Shown: positions 30,765-58,184 of the stretch, piece after piece | Position numbering within the stretch: the first letter of the stretch is position 1 | How the letters are laid out: each line of letters begins with the position of its first letter | DNA from: a virus | Length of the DNA stretch: 64,000 nucleotides | Virus record (IMG/VR): IMGVR_UViG_3300037246_002669 | Span: 1-64,000 of that record | Direction: 5' to 3' (one strand) | The notes under the pieces: generated by a model | The model's input: only the letters and a program-made list of their open reading frames with translations | Told to the model about the DNA's origin: nothing | Databases searched by the model: none | Made by a program: the position numbers and the translations under genes

Positions 30765-31700
30765 GCGGCAGTGGGGATGATATACCGGCAGTCGAAACTG
30801 TGCTTCCCTATCAGCAACGGACATGTTGTCAAGATCAGCATACCTGGGAAACGGGATCACTCCAACGGTTTGAGCAGTGGGATCAACTGCCGGATCTGCA
30901 AGGGCCTCCTGGTACCTGTTAATGGCCTCGTTGATCTCGTAGATCATACCGTCCAGCAATTCACACACTGGGCATACTCGCCTGTCATTCATTGCGACGA
31001 CTTGCACTGTCTTGACCCCATTTCGAATACCTTCTTGCAAGGCAGCATGATGCCAACAATAGCCAGACTGCACTTCACAGTTGGCCTCATGGTAAAAAGC
31101 AGGCATGAGCGGGATGCGGGCAATTCGGGCTTGGAGTGCCGCCTTATCCACTAATCGTTTGGTCGGATCGGTACGCACTATCTCTTCCAGCCGCGTTATC
31201 TCATTTGTCATAGCATCGGCGAGACCATATGCCATGATGGAATGCACGTTAACAGCATACGCCCTTGCTACGTAATCTTCCCATTCTTCCAGCGTAATTT
31301 TGGCTGCCTTGCCTGATTGCACACGAACCCGTTCTTGTGACTTAATAATCACTTTCCGAAACACACCGGCCATTTCATCCCGGGCCGCATATCCAATGGA
31401 TAATCCCATGTCGAAAGGAATAGCAGCCAATGCCCCAGCTATGATCTGTGAATTCACTGAGAAGGTGTCACCGTCAACAATGAATGCATTTTTCACAGCA
31501 TCCAGCGCCTCCCCTATGACTTCGTTCGTCAGCCTGGAGAGTAGCATGGACAGTAGAATGGCTTCCGGTCCCCAGAACTTAATAGCCGGGTTGTCTTTCA
31601 GTGCCTCTTCTGCCAGTTTGCCCACATTTCCTGATTTGATAGTGAACATGAGATCCACCGGGGTCATCTTGACAAATGACTCTTCAGTGGCTAATTTCAT
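30738..31700 (-). CDS. Head morphogenesis protein (SPP1 gp7/Mu gpF-like); in-frame UGA at 30762-30764, probably Sec
   Basis: Follows portal (ATGA overlap); DRRVCPVC..LDG..Y and P.YHPHCR-UGA-DTVMLFR-UAA. Ends at 30762 if UGA is a stop. Confidence 0.8.
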
Positions 31701-33448
31701 GCGACTACTCCCTTCTGTGCCGTTTCTTGCAGAAGGCACAAAGTTTTGTAAATGGTGATATCTTCAGAAGTGAATAGTGTACCTTCGGTTTTTTCGGCAG
31801 CATTCGAGGGAAGCGTGAGCAGACTGGAAGAGGTGGTGTCAATCTTTTCAGCAATTTCCTCAATTCCTTTCAGTCTTCCCTGTTTTGCCAGTTCAAGGAC
31901 AATAGGGAGGGGGTAACTTGCCCATTCCTGGTCGAAAATACTCATCTCCAGTCCGAATGCTTCGTTTGCCCTGGCAATGGCGTGGTTGACAGTGAAAGCC
32001 CCAACGTCAGCAAATGACTTTACACCGGCACTTGTATCTTTGGAGCCGACAATACGCGGTCCCATGGAGCAGAACTTCCAGTCGAGGACGTTAAACTCCT
32101 TAAAGACAAGATGAAGGTTCACCCATGTATCGAAGTCTTCACGTTCCGGAATGAACACCTGTTCTTCAGCAACGGTCTGCGCAGCCTGTGCAGTTGCATG
32201 GGTATAACCATCACTCTGCCCAAGGTAAAGATCAGGAAGACGAAAACGGTACCGGATAGTCTTGTAGGTGTCAGTTAAATACCGGTTAAACATGCCGTCT
32301 TCTGCCCTGTACTCCCCGAGGGGTTTGATCTCGATTTTAGCCTGTCCCTTGTCATCCAACCCGACACTTTCTACATTCGATTCAAGCAGGAGGACTTTGT
32401 TCCAGTTTTCCACTCCCCTCATGCCCAGGATCATGCTTTCCAGATCTTCTACGGATTCATCCGTAAGCGTTCCTCCACTTACAGTGATAACCATGGGAGG
32501 AATGCCTTGGGAATCGAAAAGATCGTAGTTAACATACTGTGCCTTTCTTCTGCCTTTGATATCCAAAACAGCGCCGATCCACCGGGGAACCCCATAAGAA
32601 CTTGTGCCGAAGTCCTCCCGGAAGTGTTTGATTTCTGAAGCAATGAAGAGTGGTTTCTTTTCTTTTTTGATGAGACTGATGTCTTCGGGAGTCAGGTACT
32701 TCCCTGTCATATAGTCCATCACGCGCGGATCTCCATATTCCTTGAACCAGCGCAGCGTTCTCCCGTCTGGGCCAATCTGTGCAAATTTCCGGAAGGATTT
32801 ACGCATCGTAATACGGACCACTTCCCCGTTACGACGAAGTGGAACTGTAACCTCTATGCGATTTCTGTCCACTCTGGTAAGCCGAATGTTCTTGAAAGGC
32901 AGGCGGAACATCATCTGTATTTCTCCAACTGCGTTCCTCACAATTTCCACAGTAGAGTTACCTGTGCGCTCCAGATCCTTACGCAGTTTTTTGCGCACGG
33001 CCTTAAAATCTTCAGCATCGTTCACCTGCCCAAAGAAGTCAGCAAGTTTAACCCTGTTCTTCTTAGCGTTAGGTTCCTCTGCCATTTTCGTGTCTTCTCC
33101 CAGATAATGGAAGGTGTGCCCGAATCCGTCAACATTTTGCACCATGGCATCAATGTTTGACTGCAGGGCATCAGACTCTTCGTAGATTTCGAACAAACGA
33201 CTGATATTGTAGGGAGGTTCAATCAAATTTTGAGCACCGTAGAAATCTACAAAAAGATCCTCGTCGAAATCTACAGCGCGGGAAAAAATTCCAGGAGTAC
33301 CGGCATCCCCGTATGCCTGTTCCAGTTTCTGAGCAATTCGCATTCGCATAGCTCTCAATTTTTGCCGGTTATCCTTACTGGTTGTGCCTGATATTTGCAC
33401 TCCCGGCACAGGAGGGGCGTTTTTGGTTTTTACTACTTTCTCTGGCAT
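31697..33448 (-). CDS. Portal protein (PBSX/XkdE-like)
   Basis: LIEPPY, D.E.TGN..VE..R, FKEYGDPR, YGVPRWIG, F...GIP. Confidence 0.9.
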   Translation of the reverse strand: MPEKVVKTKNAPPVPGVQISGTTSKDNRQKLRAMRMRIAQKLEQAYGDAGTPGIFSRAVDFDEDLFVDFYGAQNLIEPPYNISRLFEIYEESDALQSNIDAMVQNVDGFGHTFHYLGEDTKMAEEPNAKKNRVKLADFFGQVNDAEDFKAVRKKLRKDLERTGNSTVEIVRNAVGEIQMMFRLPFKNIRLTRVDRNRIEVTVPLRRNGEVVRITMRKSFRKFAQIGPDGRTLRWFKEYGDPRVMDYMTGKYLTPEDISLIKKEKKPLFIASEIKHFREDFGTSSYGVPRWIGAVLDIKGRRKAQYVNYDLFDSQGIPPMVITVSGGTLTDESVEDLESMILGMRGVENWNKVLLLESNVESVGLDDKGQAKIEIKPLGEYRAEDGMFNRYLTDTYKTIRYRFRLPDLYLGQSDGYTHATAQAAQTVAEEQVFIPEREDFDTWVNLHLVFKEFNVLDWKFCSMGPRIVGSKDTSAGVKSFADVGAFTVNHAIARANEAFGLEMSIFDQEWASYPLPIVLELAKQGRLKGIEEIAEKIDTTSSSLLTLPSNAAEKTEGTLFTSEDITIYKTLCLLQETAQKGVVA

Positions 33449-37023: not shown

Positions 37024-38001
37024 TTATTGCAAATAACTCGCAACTGTTGCCCCAAGTCCTTCCGTAAATCCTACCTGCGGGCGATATTTGAGTTGATCTT
37101 TGGCCTTATAGATATCAGCCTTGGAATGTTTGATATCCCCGATTCTATCCGATGTATGTTCGAATTTCCGGTCAACTCCAGTTATGCTGGAAATGGCAGA
37201 CACAAGGTCATTCAATGTATGAGATTCTCCCATAGCAATATTATAGGATTCTCCACTGGGTAACCCTGCTATTGTCAGCATAGCTTTGAGATTTGCGTGA
37301 ACTACATTGTCCACATAGGTAAAATCGCGGGACTGTTTTCCGTCTCCATGGATCTTAAACTTGTAATCCCCATCACGGCACGCCCGGATGATTTTGGGAA
37401 TCACGGCAGCGTACTCGGACTGGTCCGACTGTCGGGGACCAAACACATTGAAGTAACGCAAACACACTGTGGACAGTCCATGCATCTTCCAGTACATGTG
37501 CATGTACTCTTCAGATATGCACTTCTGCGCGGCATAGGGTGTTTTGGGGTTGAATGGCAGGGTTTCCATTTTGAATTCACAGTCCACATCTCCATACACC
37601 GAAGAGGACGAAGAGAACACAACTCTCTGCACTCCTGCAGACTTACAAGCATGCAATAGGGCAAGTGTACTTGTGGAGTTCGCCTTGTGGCTGTCCATGG
37701 GTTCCACAATGGACCTGGGAACCGAACCCAATGCAGCTACATGAAATACATAGCGACATCCGGACACTGCCAGTGCCGTGGCAACTTCATCTTCCACGTT
37801 GCCTATAATCACTCGGGGAGAGGAAACATCAAGTCTTTTTCCGTCCTCGCCCATCATTGCAGCCTCGACGTTCTCCATACTTCCGGTGGATAAATTGTCC
37901 AGTATGACAACTTCATATCCATACTTCAGCAAATGGTGCACCAAATGAGAGCCAATGAACCCGGCCCCTCCGGTAACGAGAACTTTTATATTATCACTCA
38001 T
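37024..38001 (-). CDS. NAD-dependent epimerase, WbpP-like UDP-GlcNAc 4-epimerase
   Basis: VTGGAGFIGS, HVAALGSVPRSI, SSSSVYGD, PYAAQK, LRYFNVFGPRQ, YAAVIP, GDG.QSRDFTYV.NVV.AN. Confidence 0.9.
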   Translation of the reverse strand: MSDNIKVLVTGGAGFIGSHLVHHLLKYGYEVVILDNLSTGSMENVEAAMMGEDGKRLDVSSPRVIIGNVEDEVATALAVSGCRYVFHVAALGSVPRSIVEPMDSHKANSTSTLALLHACKSAGVQRVVFSSSSSVYGDVDCEFKMETLPFNPKTPYAAQKCISEEYMHMYWKMHGLSTVCLRYFNVFGPRQSDQSEYAAVIPKIIRACRDGDYKFKIHGDGKQSRDFTYVDNVVHANLKAMLTIAGLPSGESYNIAMGESHTLNDLVSAISSITGVDRKFEHTSDRIGDIKHSKADIYKAKDQLKYRPQVGFTEGLGATVASYLQ

Positions 38002-38003
38002 CT

Positions 38004-38933
38004 TTATCCTCTTTTCCATGTATCGGCCCACTCTCGAATGTCGTAAATGGCCTGTTTCTTGATATACTCGCGGTGTTCTCCACATTTACGAGTTACTTCC
38101 TCCAATACGGAACGGTGATGTCGGTTACTTCCACGCATACTGTCCGCGTGCTTTGCCGCCAAGGACTTTCCACCAAAGAGGTAAGTGGCGATAAGGCGAT
38201 TTCTGTTAAAATCATCGGCATTCCACGAGTATCCCCTTTTCTCCCCGTGGTGGTGCAATGGAAGAGAATTAACGATCCACTTCCGCATCCCGAGAACTGC
38301 CATGGTAAAGTTAATGAAGTTTTCCCCACCTCCATAGATGCCAAACTCCGGGTGCCATCCACCTAACTTCTCATAAATGGAACGGTGCATCATCATACCG
38401 CAGGTACTCATGCAGGGCACTTCTGTAACGGAATTGCCGGGATCTCTGAAACTGCAGAAAGTATAATGGAAGACTCCCTCATTCCTTTTATCCACGAGAG
38501 AATACTGCAGCCGCTTCTCCTCCATGATGTGATAAGTTAAGGGCAAATGGAAGGTGCCATTCATGTAATACTTTTTGTCACTCAGGTACGCATGGAACAT
38601 GTTCCGCAAGACTCCGCGTGGGACATAGCAATGAGCATCACAAAACCAGAATACATCACCGGTTGCATGTTGTATGGCAAAGTTCTTTGCTTGCCAGTGA
38701 GACAACTTGTCGGTATACCGGAGGTTGATGATGTTCTTGTGTTGCCTTTTTATCTCCTCCATGTAAGGCCAGCACCGATCAGACTCCCTGCCGATATTGG
38801 GACAGTGAGAATTATCAACTGCAATCAACTCCCACTCAAAAGGAGCCTCCCTCAGTTCCTCGATTATACTACGCAAGGTGAACGGAAGAACTGGCCACTC
38901 GTTAGCGTAAGGCACTATCACTGATAGTTTCAA
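38004..38933 (-). CDS. GT-A glycosyltransferase resembling polypeptide GalNAc-transferases (GT27/GT2)
   Basis: SVIVPYANEW..L..T..SI, ELIAVDN, FCDAHC (DxH), LGGW..F.IYGGGEN, distal His. Confidence 0.8.
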   Translation of the reverse strand: MKLSVIVPYANEWPVLPFTLRSIIEELREAPFEWELIAVDNSHCPNIGRESDRCWPYMEEIKRQHKNIINLRYTDKLSHWQAKNFAIQHATGDVFWFCDAHCYVPRGVLRNMFHAYLSDKKYYMNGTFHLPLTYHIMEEKRLQYSLVDKRNEGVFHYTFCSFRDPGNSVTEVPCMSTCGMMMHRSIYEKLGGWHPEFGIYGGGENFINFTMAVLGMRKWIVNSLPLHHHGEKRGYSWNADDFNRNRLIATYLFGGKSLAAKHADSMRGSNRHHRSVLEEVTRKCGEHREYIKKQAIYDIREWADTWKRG

Positions 38934-41587: not shown

Positions 41588-41887
41588 TCAGTGGGGTTTT
41601 TTCACTACATAGGTGGCGCACAAATAATGTGCCAAATACCCTACTGCAGCGTCCACTGGAACAAGTGCGAGTGTAATTGCCAGTATACTGGGGAAATCAG
41701 GTGATGAAGAACCTTCAAAAAACAGCAGTCTGATGCTCAGTATTGCAGCACACCATGCAACTGCAGCAAAAAATGCTATCATGCCAATTCTCAATTTTCC
41801 ATTGCGTGATATGAAAAAAACCCACGACACGGTTAGGGAGAAGATAATCAGCATCCCCAGCAGGATCTCCACGAGCAGAAACTCCAT
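41588..41887 (-). CDS. Three-TM membrane protein (holin/antiholin candidate)
   Basis: Three hydrophobic segments, 99 aa. Confidence 0.6.
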   Translation of the reverse strand: MEFLLVEILLGMLIIFSLTVSWVFFISRNGKLRIGMIAFFAAVAWCAAILSIRLLFFEGSSSPDFPSILAITLALVPVDAAVGYLAHYLCATYVVKKPH

Positions 41888-41902
41888 TCCACTAATCTCC
41901 TT

Positions 41903-42217
41903 TTAATTGTTATTGATACGGCGTTCAATGGTTTCAAGGGTTGCCTTTAAATCGGAAACCACTGAAGTCCCTTTTTCGGTCACTTCAATCAGGGAAGTAA
42001 ATTGCTTTGAGGCAATCTTCGCGGCTTCGTCCCTGTCATCCTTCGCAAACTTTCTAAGTTCCTCCCTTTCAGATTTGTGATTTTTAAGCAGTTCCACCCT
42101 TTCTTTGTTGTGGGTGGTTTGTAATGTTTTTATGTAAAAGCCGAGAGCCAGTATCATTACTCCCAGAATCCCATATTCCATAAACTTTTCGACTATCGTA
42201 ATCTCTACGCTTGCCAT
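41903..42217 (-). CDS. BhlA/UviB-like holin candidate
   Basis: One N-terminal TM (YGILGVMILALGFYI) plus coiled coil. Confidence 0.6.
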   Translation of the reverse strand: MASVEITIVEKFMEYGILGVMILALGFYIKTLQTTHNKERVELLKNHKSEREELRKFAKDDRDEAAKIASKQFTSLIEVTEKGTSVVSDLKATLETIERRINNN

Positions 42218-42521: not shown

Positions 42522-42947
42522 TTAGGTTGTCGTTGTGGTGGTCGGTGCCGCAGTTGTCGTCGTTGTGGTCGGAGCAACTGTCGTCGTCGTTGTGGTCGGA
42601 GCTACCGTTGTTGTCGTAGTGGTCGTCGGGGGTAAAGTAGTGGTAGTGGTCGTCGGGGGTAAAGTAGTGGTAGTGGTCGTAGGTGCCACTGTCGTCGTGG
42701 TCGTTGCAGCAGAAACCTCCGTCAAATTGAAGGCCACTACTGCCCCATCGGGTTTTCTTATTTTCAACTTTTTCTGTGGATCATTTAGCCACATGGAAAG
42801 CCATTTCTGCGTCGATGCATCCGGATCTGACTGCAAAACCGGCAAGGTAGCGGTATGTTCTTTAGGATCTCCCGAGAAAGTTTTATAGGGTGCCGTCCCT
42901 CCCTCCCGGACAGTAGCGGACTCGTTGTACACTTGTTTCTTCATCAC
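42522..42947 (-). CDS. Virion protein with ~60-aa mucin-like Thr/Pro C-terminal tail
   Basis: ATTTTTVAPTTTTTTLPP... to the stop. Confidence 0.8.
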   Translation of the reverse strand: MMKKQVYNESATVREGGTAPYKTFSGDPKEHTATLPVLQSDPDASTQKWLSMWLNDPQKKLKIRKPDGAVVAFNLTEVSAATTTTTVAPTTTTTTLPPTTTTTTLPPTTTTTTTVAPTTTTTTVAPTTTTTTAAPTTTTTT

Positions 42948-53940: not shown

Positions 53941-54318
53941 TTAAACCTCCATGAGTTTGAGCCATACGTTATTGTAATTATCCGTACCCTCCGGGTTTGG
54001 GCGACCTACGACCGGATCTGCTTCGATCACAGGATGGTTTTCATGCCGAAATCTCACAGTGTAGGTTGTACCTTCATAAACTAATGAGTAGACCGCACGG
54101 GCAACACTGGCAAGTGCCCATAAACTGTCGAGAGTAGATTTGTCAATCCATCCACTGTCATTTCCTCCCAAAAGATCAATAAGAGTACCGCCCACGGAAC
54201 TCTGTTCCCATATAATCGGAGTACCATCCATCGCGGTCTCCGTTACTGCCTTTACCGGGGCAGCGCCCGTAACTGATCGGATCAGATCCGGCAGGGTTAT
54301 TCCTTCCAGTGCTATCAT
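53941..54318 (-). CDS. Distal tail (Dit-like) protein
   Basis: Directly after the tape measure; TLPD...DG......G..I.L...W...L.LMEV. Confidence 0.7.
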   Translation of the reverse strand: MIALEGITLPDLIRSVTGAAPVKAVTETAMDGTPIIWEQSSVGGTLIDLLGGNDSGWIDKSTLDSLWALASVARAVYSLVYEGTTYTVRFRHENHPVIEADPVVGRPNPEGTDNYNNVWLKLMEV

Positions 54319-57300
54319 CTTTTCCTCCCATTTGCCAGCCCTTTCCGTTTTAGGGCAATTCCCAGTGCTGATAATACATCAGTGTTACCTGCTACTGGAT
54401 ATTCGTTTCCGTCCACATGCAGTTTCATTATCCCCATGTTTTGCAGTTCAGGAATCTCCACAGAAGTGGCACGATTAGAAGTCGGGGCCATTGCCAGTGC
54501 GGGTACTTTAACGTCCGGAATATTAAAGGCAGGAGTAAGGGGACCTCCTTCTCGTAATTTCATTATTCCTGGAAATTGACTTGCAGATACGGCCATCCTG
54601 TTGAGCATGTCAAAGAATCCCATACCGTATCGTCTAACAGCTTCTTTCCGAATCATGAACTCCCCGGATTCCCCAAGAAACGGAATCTTGTCGCCCCCGC
54701 CATAGCCGCCCCCGGTCTTTCCTCCTCCGGTAATGTCCCGCCCTGTGGAAAGTGGTCCACCAGTTTTCAAGCCGGTAGGTTTACCTGTTGTCTTGTACCT
54801 TGTGGTGATAGTGATGGTTTTACTCCGCAGTCCGTCAATTTCTCGTTTCAACTTTCTCAGGGTAGTTAGAATATTGGAAGGAGTCAGAACCACCCTGACA
54901 CGAGAAGTACTATTTTGAGGGAGAGCGCGAATCAGTTTCTTCAACTCCTTAACTTTTTCAGAACCGGTGGTCTCTGCAACAACGTCAATAGACCTGTCCA
55001 TAACGGACAGGATAAGTTCCTGCAGGTACTCTACATCGTCATCTCCTCGCACGTTAGCAACTACGGCAATTTCCTTTCCATCCGGAAGATCATCTATAAG
55101 GGTTTTCGCCTGTTTGAGATCATCTTCACCGTCCACCCTGATATCGACAGCAACTTCTGCATCTTCGATATCGTCGAGTTGGTTCGCCACTTCCTTAAGA
55201 GTCTTTGTAACCTCCCTTCCGTCCACATTAATTTTCAGTTTCTCGCCGGTCACGCTATCGGTGAATTCTTTATATTTTCCCTTAATCTCATCAAGTTTTT
55301 CGATAAGAGGTTTCTCGGAAGAGGCAGTGCCAGTAAATTCAATAACTGCCTTTAGATCTTTTTCCTCCAGGGACTTGTGAAGTGCAGTGATCTCACTCAT
55401 GGCCTTTTCGAAATCTTCTATGGAAACCCGGACCTCCACATCGCTGAGTTTCTTCGACATCTCATCCCATTTGGCCATGATTTTATTGGCGGCAGATTCA
55501 AAAGCCTCCGCGCCTTCTTCTGCGGCTTTCTTCTGCGGTTGCAGTACATTGACAAGGATCTCTTCCCGAAGAACTTTGTACTGTCTGATTGCTTTCTCGT
55601 TGTTGATTTCCAGAGGCACGACAACGGTATCTGTGCCTTCTTTGATTTCCGTTGCCTGTTGCATGATCAGGTTCTGGACTTTGTTGTAGTACTGTTGGGC
55701 AATTTGGAAATCTTTAGCAGCCGCAAGTTTACGGGCCTGAGTAGTAAGACGGGCGATCTCTTTTTCCCTACTTGCATACTGTTCTACATCGGTCATGGTA
55801 CGGCGTTTGTATTCCTGGATGGAAGTTTCCGTTGATAGGTTGAAGGAAGCAATAACCTCGCCAAGTTTCTCGGCTACCTTTTTGTAATTCTCGGCAGCCT
55901 TCATCGCCTCTTTGTAGGATTTAACAGCTTGCTTTTCGAATGACTTCAACCCTTCTTCCACATTCATCAGCGGTTTGTTCAGGTCACCTACTGCACCACC
56001 CGCCTTCTCCACTTCTTTTTGCATTTCGATGAAAGCTCTTCTCAGCGGATCTGCCAAATCTGCCAAACCAGGGAAGGCGGAAACCAGTTGGATAAAGTCC
56101 TCAACGTTGTCAGTGAGATCTATGTTCCCAATTTTTACTCCCTGTTTTACAAAGTCTTCTGCAAAACGATTTATGGCAGCCTGTGCAGCTTCGGGTCGGT
56201 TGTTGAATTCGTCCCAGTAAGCAGAGATTTCACCCTTGGAACCCATGATCTGCAATTTTACCTGCGCAAGTTTGTCTCCCAACGTACCTACGGTCTTGCC
56301 GGTTCTCGTACCACTCTCCGATACTTCCCGCAACTTTTCTGCCAGTAACTCAGCAGCAGCCGCGCCTTCTTGGAACTGTACTCTACCAAGAACAGTTTCA
56401 TACTCTTCAAGGGCCTTTCCCCCATCTTTCAATTCCCCGGTAATACTGTTGATGGATGCCGCAGCGTTACTTGCAGCAACTCCAAGTGATCCTTCGGTAG
56501 TATCGGCCACCGCTATCAAATTATCACGAAGTTTTAATGCAGTGGTCCCGAATAGGACATTGTTGCCTCTCGCGATGTCAAGGGCTTTTGTGAAGGAAAG
56601 AAAAGCATCAGCAGCATCTCTCGTTTTTGCAGCCACTTTACCTTGTACTTCAATCTGTTCATCGGTACTTTTACCCAAAATGGCAAAAGCAGCAACCACT
56701 ACGCCGACTGCGGCAGCAATGGCGAAAAATGGGTGAGCGATTATCAATGCCCACAGGCCAGCCAAAGCAGTCTTTACCACCGCAACTGCTCCAAGAGCGA
56801 AAGCTATCAATTTCGCCTTTAGAGCACCTATCACTAAGCCGAATGCCTGAAACATACCGGCTCCTTGAATCAGGAAAGTGAATCCCATTTCTGCTACAAG
56901 GAAAGCAAATGCCTTCTGCAGACTACCCACTGCGAGTGCCACAGTTCCAATGGATATCACAAGCAATCCCAGTCCCCCAATGAGTCCGGTTATAAGTCCC
57001 GCGATCAATGGAAACTCATTTGCCAAATCAGCCAGGAGGGACAAGAAATTTGAAATGGTGTTCATGACTTTCGATAAAACTCCGAGCAGGGGTTTACCCA
57101 AGGCAGTCAGTAACCCGTCCAGTGCTGACTGAAACAGCGTGAAAGATCCAATCAGGTTATCTTCCATCACCATTGCCATGGTCTTCGCAGCACCGGCTGA
57201 AACATGATTTGCCACAGTGAGTTCTGTCAACTTCTCGATAGAGACTGACATTGCAAGAGCACCAGCGGCGGCAGTACGGCGGAAAATGGCAGCAGCAGAT

Positions 57301-58184
57301 GCCAAGTCCAGGTTGGCATCTCCGAGTCTTCTCATCGTCTCAGTGAGATTTATAGATCCATCTGCATTTTTGGCAACGGTCACTCCCAGTTTATCCATCG
57401 CCTCTCTTGCTTTTTTGGTGGGATCGGATAGTGATATCATGATACCACGTAACTGAGTTCCTGCAGAACTTGCTTGAATACCGTTGTCACCCAGAATACC
57501 AATGGCGGCGGCAACTTCCTCCAGTGGTACTTTAGCGGCAGCAGCAGCCGGTCCTACGTAAACCATTGCTTCTGCCATTTGAGTGATATCAGTATTTGCG
57601 CTTGAAGCAGTGTTTGCAAGTACATCTACGACATGCCCCAACTCCTCCACTGGGAGTCGCATTGCTGACAAGATATTTGAGGCAATATCTGCAGCGGACG
57701 CAAGATCAAGGCCACCTGCGGCTGCAAGTTCCAGGGAAGGACCAATGGTCTTTATAACTTCATTGGCCGTAAATCCTGCCTGTCCGAGAAATCGCATACC
57801 ATCTGCTGCTTCGGACGCGGAAAACTTTGTGGTCCTTCCAAGTTCTGCGGCTTTTTTGGATAGGGCATCAAATTCACGTTCAGCATCGGTGGTTACTGCC
57901 AGCACTCCTGACATTGACTTTTCGAAGGTGGCTGCGGCTTTAATGGGGAAAAATGCTGCGGTGGCAAGTCCGGCTCCTACAGCCACGAGGTTTCTGCCCA
58001 TCGTGAGCAAATTATCACCGGACTGCCTTAATTCGTCTATCTTCTTTTTTGCTTTGGCTGAAGAATCCCCAAAACCATCCATTCCCTTCTGAAGACCGGT
58101 GATCCTTTTCCGCAACAACTGAAGGGAACGTTCGGCTTTATCTTGCGCCGTAATAAGAAGTTCTAACTTTGCTTGAACTGTCAT
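54315..58184 (-). CDS. Tape measure protein (TP901-type)
   Basis: FEKSMS.V.A, LGRTTKFSA.EAA.GM..L, DVLA.TA..ANT, GIQASSAGT.LR; hydrophobic middle; GEFMIRKEAV. Confidence 0.95.
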   Translation of the reverse strand: MTVQAKLELLITAQDKAERSLQLLRKRITGLQKGMDGFGDSSAKAKKKIDELRQSGDNLLTMGRNLVAVGAGLATAAFFPIKAAATFEKSMSGVLAVTTDAEREFDALSKKAAELGRTTKFSASEAADGMRFLGQAGFTANEVIKTIGPSLELAAAGGLDLASAADIASNILSAMRLPVEELGHVVDVLANTASSANTDITQMAEAMVYVGPAAAAAKVPLEEVAAAIGILGDNGIQASSAGTQLRGIMISLSDPTKKAREAMDKLGVTVAKNADGSINLTETMRRLGDANLDLASAAAIFRRTAAAGALAMSVSIEKLTELTVANHVSAGAAKTMAMVMEDNLIGSFTLFQSALDGLLTALGKPLLGVLSKVMNTISNFLSLLADLANEFPLIAGLITGLIGGLGLLVISIGTVALAVGSLQKAFAFLVAEMGFTFLIQGAGMFQAFGLVIGALKAKLIAFALGAVAVVKTALAGLWALIIAHPFFAIAAAVGVVVAAFAILGKSTDEQIEVQGKVAAKTRDAADAFLSFTKALDIARGNNVLFGTTALKLRDNLIAVADTTEGSLGVAASNAAASINSITGELKDGGKALEEYETVLGRVQFQEGAAAAELLAEKLREVSESGTRTGKTVGTLGDKLAQVKLQIMGSKGEISAYWDEFNNRPEAAQAAINRFAEDFVKQGVKIGNIDLTDNVEDFIQLVSAFPGLADLADPLRRAFIEMQKEVEKAGGAVGDLNKPLMNVEEGLKSFEKQAVKSYKEAMKAAENYKKVAEKLGEVIASFNLSTETSIQEYKRRTMTDVEQYASREKEIARLTTQARKLAAAKDFQIAQQYYNKVQNLIMQQATEIKEGTDTVVVPLEINNEKAIRQYKVLREEILVNVLQPQKKAAEEGAEAFESAANKIMAKWDEMSKKLSDVEVRVSIEDFEKAMSEITALHKSLEEKDLKAVIEFTGTASSEKPLIEKLDEIKGKYKEFTDSVTGEKLKINVDGREVTKTLKEVANQLDDIEDAEVAVDIRVDGEDDLKQAKTLIDDLPDGKEIAVVANVRGDDDVEYLQELILSVMDRSIDVVAETTGSEKVKELKKLIRALPQNSTSRVRVVLTPSNILTTLRKLKREIDGLRSKTITITTRYKTTGKPTGLKTGGPLSTGRDITGGGKTGGGYGGGDKIPFLGESGEFMIRKEAVRRYGMGFFDMLNRMAVSASQFPGIMKLREGGPLTPAFNIPDVKVPALAMAPTSNRATSVEIPELQNMGIMKLHVDGNEYPVAGNTDVLSALGIALKRKGLANGRKR

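Follow-up and report, generated by a model that had tools for sequence, protein, structure and literature searches.

Results

A glycosyltransferase gene in a siphovirus-like phage genome

We analyzed a stretch of 64,000 nucleotides (64 kb) of viral DNA (IMG/VR virus record IMGVR_UViG_3300037246_002669, positions 1 to 64,000; hereafter the window), which contains at 38004-38933 on the minus strand an open reading frame (ORF) for a glycosyltransferase (GT) resembling the catalytic domain of polypeptide N-acetylgalactosaminyltransferases (ppGalNAc-Ts, GalNAc-Ts, family GT27). The full record comprises 94,912 bases (94.9 kb) with a CheckV completeness of 96%, and nearly all genes of the phage genome are carried on the minus strand. 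PHROG matches to portal, capsid, adaptor, tail, and tape-measure proteins, with further tail proteins matched in the window, assign the genome to an uncultured, siphovirus-like phage. The ORF encodes 309 amino acids, exactly as described in an earlier reading of the letters alone (the original prediction); it starts with TTG, 7 nt downstream of an AGGAGG ribosome-binding site (RBS), and ends with TAA. It belongs to a run of sugar genes for a GT4, a GT9-like protein, a conserved protein, the GT27-like enzyme, and an epimerase of the short-chain dehydrogenase/reductase (SDR) type.

Sequence profile and predicted fold of the GT27-like enzyme

All motifs on which the original prediction was based were present and colinear with ppGalNAc-T10 and Drosophila PGANT9 in HMMER alignments. 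In the alignments with ppGalNAc-Ts, SVIVPYANEW paired with SIIIPFHNEGW, ELIAVDN with EIVLVDD, FCDAHC with FLDSHC, GIYGGGEN with IWGGEN, and LHHHGEKRGY with VGHIFRKRSPY. Since the search of the PDB with the single sequence (phmmer) stayed below significance (E 0.065), a family profile was needed, which was derived from an alignment of 30 family members (A1). With this profile, seven ppGalNAc-Ts ranked first (E 1.6e-7 to 5e-6) in alignments spanning profile positions 3 to 217-264; the next PDB match, TarP, covered the N-terminal half only.

An AlphaFold2 model calculated on A1 reached a mean predicted local distance difference test score (pLDDT) of 93.3 and a predicted template modeling score (pTM) of 0.92. 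In a Foldseek search with this model, all of the matches listed were ppGalNAc-Ts, with E values down to 1.6e-15. Exhaustive structural comparison of the model (VIA-align) gave a Z score of 26.9 and a root-mean-square deviation of 2.8 Å over 285 of 309 residues for mouse GalNAc-T1 and a Z score of 25.7 for Toxoplasma GalNAc-T3 (TgGalNAc-T3), and the best fold outside GT27 was that of the chondroitin polymerase K4CP (Z 19.4). The model comprises a GT27-type GT-A catalytic domain including its C-terminal helical part. Among solved structures, the enzyme as modeled is thus most like the animal mucin-initiating GalNAc-transferases.

The absence of a transmembrane anchor and of a ricin-type lectin domain, both stated in the original prediction, was borne out as well. 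The highest mean Kyte-Doolittle value over 19 amino acids was 0.95, and the first beta-strand begins at residue 2; the protein aligns along its entire length to the catalytic domain, which leaves no space for a lectin domain, and no lectin model of Pfam matched. Without anchor and lectin domain, the enzyme must act in the cytoplasm.

Names in databases point elsewhere. The protein matched GT2-type models only in Pfam (PF00535 at 60.8 bits), and NCBIfam and source names gave solely GT2 or 'cell wall biosynthesis', which weighs against a relationship to GT27 and would suit an ordinary GT2 polysaccharide synthase with a coincidental likeness to ppGalNAc-Ts. The PF00535 match does not discriminate between GT2 and GT27 because this model covers GT27 catalytic domains too. 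Against an ordinary GT2 stand the gap of approximately 7 Z units between ppGalNAc-Ts and every other GT-A fold with nearly all residues aligned, the near full-length profile matches to ppGalNAc-Ts in all seven top positions, and the nature of the invariant residues, which belong to the site formed by DxH and the C-terminal His and to the GGE motif (see below). This alternative is already disfavored, and we consider it very improbable. The profile and the predicted fold support the assignment that the enzyme is closest to the GT27 catalytic domain and does not fall with ordinary polysaccharide GT2s.

With regard to related families, PF02709 matched weakly in 2 of the 30 family members and also matched related fusions, none of the 30 matched PF11397, which we take to be the GT60 model of Pfam, at E ≤ 1, and no GT60 entry was among the fold-search matches. 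K4CP is a member of the GT2-CHS group, which falls into the same clade as GT7, GT27, and GT60 (Taujale et al., PMC7185993). In view of the low identity to ppGalNAc-Ts (14-18%), the differences in motifs, and the GT2-only Pfam matches, the enzyme is named GT27-like and membership is not claimed.

Conserved residues

In an alignment of 27 divergent members with identities down to 20% (A4), the only invariant columns were H101, G202, E204, and H228, with D99, E12, N41, and Y235 kept in at least 90% of the members. H101 is the His of the DxH motif, and G202 and E204 lie within the GGEN-type motif, in which Y200-GGGEN pairs with IWGGEN as in the Gal/GalNAc-T motif. H228 pairs with the His through which GalNAc-Ts bind the metal, located in their segment VGH(I/V)FRK. 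The original prediction had read DxH rather than DxD and a distal His from the sequence, and both were recovered as D99-A-H101 and H228 in the alignment with ppGalNAc-Ts; these residues (D99, H101, and H228) are putative Mn2+ ligands as in GT27. The residue after E204 (position 205) was N, H, Q, or P in the A1 members and never Asp or Glu. A non-acidic residue after GGE resembles the retaining GT27 enzymes (GGEN) and not inverting GT7 enzymes such as beta4GalT. The enzyme has neither the DxD motif of generic inverting GT2 enzymes nor a carboxylate base following its GGE-type motif. Only in GT27 and GT60 has DxD been replaced by DxH (Taujale et al., PMC7185993).

Poly-Thr tracts on virion proteins

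Among the 851 six-frame ORFs of at least 50 amino acids in the whole genome, only six contained TTTT runs. All six are virion genes, and five of them end in T5-6 (Table 1). The protein with a LamG/ConA-like domain alone has 19 TTTT runs: it opens with the Thr tract MTTTTTVGPTTTTT and carries approximately 140 amino acids of TTTTT(V/I)(A/P)(P/G) repeats followed by a small C-terminal domain, an arrangement of a lectin-fold head between mucin-like stalks. All four Thr codons are used in the tracts, which therefore look selected at the protein level.

The ORF of 128 amino acids that consists almost entirely of Thr repeats lies right after the TAG stop of the adaptor gene and in frame with it (61207-61222). 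TAG read-through of the adaptor, which if real would provide it with a mucin-like stalk of approximately 130 amino acids, was set aside, as a GGAG site and an ATG belonging to the ORF itself make it look like a separate gene.

The association between the enzyme and Thr tracts was followed in 70 GT27-like loci of IMG/VR, located on contigs of 10 to 277 kb. Thr-rich ORFs, defined by at least 15 Thr in 30 residues and a distance of up to 10 kb from the GT gene, were found in 40 of these loci, nearly all on the same strand as the enzyme, versus none of 63 control loci centered on a phage PolA gene and without the GT (974 kb; Fisher p = 4e-15). PolA-centered loci served as controls because a search for capsid relatives as matched control found none. 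As these controls represent replication and not structural modules, a search of whole records was added with eight consecutive ACN codons as the tract criterion. By this measure, 8 of 15 enzyme-positive records without a tract in the flanks had one elsewhere in the record, versus 1 of 25 enzyme-negative records; the latter (G018) carries the GT4 partner described below. In total, Thr tracts were present in 48 of the 70 GT loci or their parent records and in 0 of 24 records without either GT. C-terminal Thr tails were seen in 19/70 GT loci and in 1/76 control loci.

Across phages, the Thr-tailed proteins comprised major head proteins of two families (phrog_1623 and phrog_29), the major tail protein (phrog_807), and a head decoration protein (phrog_49). 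Since these are unrelated families of structural proteins, the tail behaves like a portable tag. C-terminal extensions that resemble acceptors, and are predicted to be such, are thus found on capsid and tail-tube subunits and are encoded along with phage GTs.

Genes accompanying the GT27-like gene

The features of the window are compiled in Table 1. The GT4 was the most constant companion of the GT27-like gene: a homologue (40-55% identical) was located within 10 kb in 57 of the 70 GT loci, upstream and on the same strand in 56. Conversely, a GT27-like gene followed within 10 kb downstream of GT4 in 57 of 80 GT4 loci, the remainder having mostly truncated flanks. The model of the GT4 (pLDDT 93.7) is that of a generic retaining GT-B enzyme with Z scores of approximately 15.8 to BshA/MshA; no family stood out in the fold search, and GtfA ranked 23rd (Z 12.9).

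The epimerase ORF extends to 38085, and its likely start is the ATG at 38001, 2 nt past the TAA stop of the GT, an arrangement that predicts translational coupling of the epimerase downstream of the GT27-like gene. Its best PDB matches were WbgU (3.8e-66), the UDP-GlcNAc 4-epimerases 6wjb and 6dnt, and WbpP (UDP, uridine diphosphate; GlcNAc, N-acetylglucosamine). These matches suggest that this phage uses UDP-GalNAc, or a 4-epimer related to it, as donor. The GT9-like protein had weak NCBIfam heptosyltransferase matches and was found in 11/70 loci; the conserved neighbor of approximately 145 amino acids yielded no lead in Pfam, PHROG, or Atlas. Between the Thr-rich fiber-like genes and the GT cassette lie two short ORFs (99 and 104 amino acids; 41588-42217), hydrophobic in part, that may encode lysis proteins.

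Table 1. Genes of the window referred to in the text; positions are those of the window, and Thr-rich ends or repeats are given with the feature.
Feature	Position	Strand	Basis
Portal	31697-33448		PHROG match
UDP-GlcNAc/GalNAc 4-epimerase-like SDR	37024..38001	-	PDB matches
GT27-like (DxH) GT-A glycosyltransferase, 309 aa	38004..38933	-	Profile, fold, motifs
Conserved protein, ~145 aa	38902..39339	-	Homologue in 23/70 GT loci, frequently as the gene immediately upstream of GT
GT9-like (heptosyltransferase-like) short GT-B, 252 aa	39354..40112	-	PF01075 4.3e-6
GT4-type retaining GT-B glycosyltransferase, 441 aa	40142..41467	-	PF00534
141-aa protein, TTTTTVAP/TTTTTLPP repeats, TTTTTT end	42522..42947	-	Translation
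LamG/ConA-like domain protein, 446 aa	42944..44284	-	PF13385 1.4e-15; PHROG virion and baseplate families
Tape-measure protein	54315-58184		PHROG match
Major tail (tail-tube) protein, end (TTTTTATP)2TTTTTT	58855..59463	-	phrog_807 2.2e-26
128-aa protein, nearly all TTTTTVAP repeats, own RBS	60821..61207	-	Translation
Head-tail adaptor, end TTTTTVAQSTTTTT	61220..61807	-	phrog_477 2.1e-12
Major capsid-type protein, end GATTTTT	62122..63084	-	phrog_1623 9.9e-105

Size and distribution of the family

This large family is nearly confined to viruses and has been encountered in metagenomes only. At least 850 members were counted in a collection clustered at 90% identity, mostly of 300-320 amino acids and 45-50% identical to the enzyme, and a HMMER scan of 1.84 billion representatives retrieved 121 clusters at E ≤ 1e-30 and 259 at E ≤ 1e-10. 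The closest Atlas clusters were 90-100% viral. The 185,579 species-representative genomes contained a GT27-like gene on only seven contigs, all from metagenome-assembled genomes (MAGs) assigned to Desulfobacteraceae (2), 'Deltaproteobacteria' (2), a proteobacterium, a Thermoplasmatota bin, and a Thorarchaeota bin; a GT4 homologue was also present on 5/7 of them. In a tblastn search against 50,697 GenBank phages, no match was obtained at 1e-5, and the best match at E ≤ 5 was to Tunturiibacter phage Tunturi_4 with 21.6% identity.

The two archaeal-MAG contigs with a family member (L150 and L153, from the Thermoplasmatota and Thorarchaeota bins) may be mis-binned phage contigs or archaeal viruses. 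L153 also has a GT4 homologue and a Thr/Ser-rich ORF.

Longer fused forms of the family included no lectin fusion. In P0122 (601 amino acids), P0123 (740 amino acids), and P0270 (723 amino acids), a second GT2-type domain is fused in tandem with the GT27-like domain, with a third GT2-type domain in P0270; P0123 and P0270 matched Pfam Glyco_transf_7C above the cut-off. In the metagenomic protein P0242 (423 amino acids), a distant family member matching the profile at E 1e-29, a PqqD-type domain is fused to the N-terminus of the GT, whose DAH, GGEE, and HH..RRGY motifs are retained. PqqD-type domains are of the peptide-binding type known from pathways for ribosomally synthesized and post-translationally modified peptides (RiPPs). 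P0242 may act in such a pathway as a peptide glycosyltransferase.

The distribution of the family and its link to Thr tails bear on a further possibility, in which the acceptor is not a protein but, for instance, a glycan or lipid carrier of the host envelope (as in serotype conversion or superinfection exclusion) or modified phage DNA, the link to Thr tails being indirect. Such a role is the usual annotation of most phage GT2 genes, and it is also suggested by a weak PHROG match to GtrB-like O-antigen conversion (2.1e-4, N-terminal half only) and by the DNA polymerase gene adjoining the cassette in 18/70 loci. GtrB-type enzymes are membrane proteins, and the enzyme described here has no transmembrane segment. 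Its solubility, together with the near absence of family members from the genomes of cells, makes a GtrB-like modification of the host envelope unlikely. DNA glycosylation was set aside, and is unlikely, because the 96%-complete genome has no homologue of thymidylate synthase or hydroxymethylase (PF00303). Neither DNA nor envelope modification explains the Thr tails, to which the statistical link is very strong. We therefore rate a non-protein acceptor as quite improbable.

Candidate initiating enzyme

From gene content and Thr tracts, the cassette is likely to be a system for the O-glycosylation of virion proteins. As to which of its enzymes acts first on the protein, we lean, by a little, toward the GT27-like enzyme as the initiator on virion Thr tails. 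Three observations favor it. The phage genome G005 (93% complete) encodes three poly-Thr-tailed proteins including the major head protein, and its GT27-like gene is the sole PF00535 match, with no PF00534 match and no GT4 homologue. The relative P0242 is fused to a domain of the peptide-binding type. The enzyme resembles a clade of polypeptide transferases, and the DxH enzymes characterized so far act on polypeptides (PMC7185993).

In the competing scheme, the GT4 attaches the first sugar to Thr and the GT27-like enzyme only extends the glycan, with a sugar as acceptor. The analogy is with GtfA/B and SdgA/B, which act on Ser-rich repeats: GT4 enzymes initiate the glycosylation of Ser-rich-repeat proteins in Gram-positive bacteria. 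This order would agree with the frequent pairing of both genes (57/70 loci). It would also agree with the incomplete genomes G018, G041, and G042, which contain GT4 and poly-Thr runs and have no detectable GT27-like gene; C-terminal Thr tails were seen in G018 and G041. In G018 (82% complete), a GT2-methyltransferase fusion stands in the place of the GT27-like gene, as expected if the GT-A enzyme were an exchangeable, elongating one. Against GT4 as the initiator speak its flat list of generic retaining GT-B folds with GtfA far down, the Thr-tailed G005 without GT4, and the peptide-related features of the DxH enzymes and of P0242 given above. On balance, initiation by the GT4 appears fairly unlikely, and we retain the GT27-like enzyme as the candidate initiator.

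In G018, the GT4 homologue is followed by the GT2-methyltransferase fusion, a papain-like cysteine protease, and a radical-SAM protein (L231:9977-17403), and two proteins with long poly-Thr tail ends are encoded at L234:1109-2124.

Several findings weigh against initiation by a GalNAc-transferase-like enzyme and against its link to the tails. By virtue of the three genomes without a GT27-like gene, Thr tails track GT4 about as well as the GT27-like enzyme. Approximately 22 of the 70 GT loci had no Thr tract (many of them are fragments), and the association of GT and Thr tails is a correlation only. An epimerase homologue was present in only 7/70 GT loci, so the donor may vary between phages or come from the host. 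The 'MAGG' segment of the GalNAc-T donor pocket reads 'MSTC' in the enzyme, and the donor sugar may differ accordingly.

The motif and fold observations made in the original prediction are thus confirmed, well beyond chance, and its interpretation is partly supported. Its reading as a polypeptide GalNAc-transferase gains from the fold, the motifs, the candidate Thr acceptors, and the epimerase group, and loses from an identity of only 14-18% and from the altered donor-pocket segment. Its proposal of cytoplasmic action on virion proteins is in line with a soluble enzyme and Thr-tailed virion proteins encoded in the same genome, with the reservation that the co-conserved GT4 could act first.

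Discussion

We propose that the GT27-like enzyme is a soluble, cytoplasmic GT-A glycosyltransferase of the Mn2+ type belonging to the DxH clade that holds GT27 and GT60. Late in infection, it would work together with the GT4 and, in this phage, with the GT9-like enzyme, and the coupled UDP-GlcNAc/GalNAc 4-epimerase would probably supply the donor. Initiation would consist in the transfer of an N-acetylhexosamine (HexNAc; here probably GalNAc) from the UDP-sugar to Thr hydroxyls with retention of configuration. The poly-Thr (Thr/Pro) tracts at the ends of the capsid, adaptor, and tail-tube proteins, and those that run through the fiber-like proteins, would receive O-glycans, and assembled virions would be covered by mucin-like sugars. 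In this scheme, we infer which protein is the acceptor, which sugar is donated, that configuration is retained, that the enzyme initiates, and what biological purpose is served. As a tentative proposal, we regard it as quite possible, and still short of probable, that uncultured tailed phages harbor a widespread lineage of polypeptide O-HexNAc transferases that are related to eukaryotic ppGalNAc-Ts, act in the cytoplasm, and have no lectin domain. These enzymes would recognize a poly-Thr tag that is portable between the C-termini of unrelated proteins of the capsid, adaptor, tail tube, and fibers, and the virions would thereby gain a mucin-like glycan coat.

The predicted model shares the same GT-A catalytic domain over its whole length with eukaryotic ppGalNAc-Ts (GalNAc-T1, T2, T10, and Toxoplasma GalNAc-T3), and DxH with a C-terminal His, a GGEN-type motif, and an N-terminal HNE-W motif are common to both. 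The presumed acceptors are likewise Thr-rich, Pro-containing mucin-like repeats, many of which read T-x-x-P in this phage; T-x-x-P is a preferred context of GalNAc-Ts. In contrast to the phage enzyme, which is cytoplasmic and has neither, ppGalNAc-Ts have a signal anchor and a ricin-type lectin domain and reside in the Golgi lumen. A functional lectin domain is not found in every animal ppGalNAc-T isoform. Further differences from GT27 are YGGGEN for WGGEN, VDN for VDD, and MSTC for MAGG. The setting of the phage enzyme, known here from sequence and a predicted model, is viral and prokaryotic.

GT60 enzymes, polypeptide alpha-GlcNAc transferases of the cytoplasm or the Golgi such as Dictyostelium/Toxoplasma Gnt1 and the trypanosomatid OGNTs, also have DxH, and some members are soluble, cytoplasmic, and lectin-less. 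GT60 is a DxH family close to GT27 in the same clade and has been reported from prokaryotes and protists (PMC7185993).

The GtfA/B and SdgA/B systems of Gram-positive bacteria perform cytoplasmic O-glycosylation of long low-complexity Ser/Thr tracts with a cassette of several GTs including a GT4. They differ from the phage cassette in that the GT4 initiates, no DxH GT-A is involved, and the substrates are host adhesins and not virion proteins.

To our knowledge, glycosylation of phage virions has been shown only in few mycobacteriophages, with unrelated enzymes. According to passages of PMC12619734 and PMC12363180 referring to Freeman et al. 2023, the mycobacteriophages Che8, Corndog, and Myrna use their own GTs to glycosylate the C-termini of capsid and tail-tube subunits. 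As far as these passages describe it, the logic is the same, namely a C-terminal tag combined with a GT cassette; the candidate acceptor here differs in being a homopolymeric Thr tail. No relation was detected between Che8 gp108-110 and either the GT27-like enzyme or the GT4 (hhalign probability <1% for all three), and no actinophage was among the tblastn matches of the GT27-like enzyme to GenBank phages at E ≤ 5. In the literature searched, mentions of GT27 for bacterial or viral data were confined to automatic CAZy labels, and no study of a phage ppGalNAc-T-like enzyme was found. Thus, phage virion glycosylation as an idea is known, and what is new is this family of enzymes along with the homopolymeric Thr tag.

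The results are relevant to glycobiology, phage biology, and glycoengineering. They point to a much larger, uncharacterized, and almost purely viral enzyme family with a simple and recognizable acceptor signature, the poly-Thr tails on major virion proteins. Should the GT27-like enzyme be the initiator on Thr, it would be a naturally soluble enzyme that comes with a short, genetically encodable tag, an attractive pair for making O-glycoproteins in the bacterial cytoplasm. In that case, a glycan coat could also influence the stability of the phage particles and their adhesion to other particles, along with host and antibody recognition. Initiation on Thr would further make it a polypeptide glycosyltransferase of the ppGalNAc-T kind from prokaryotic viruses, and the proposed phage lineage, if real, would represent a prokaryotic-virus branch of the GT27/GT60 clade; both would bear on the origin of mucin-type O-glycosylation.

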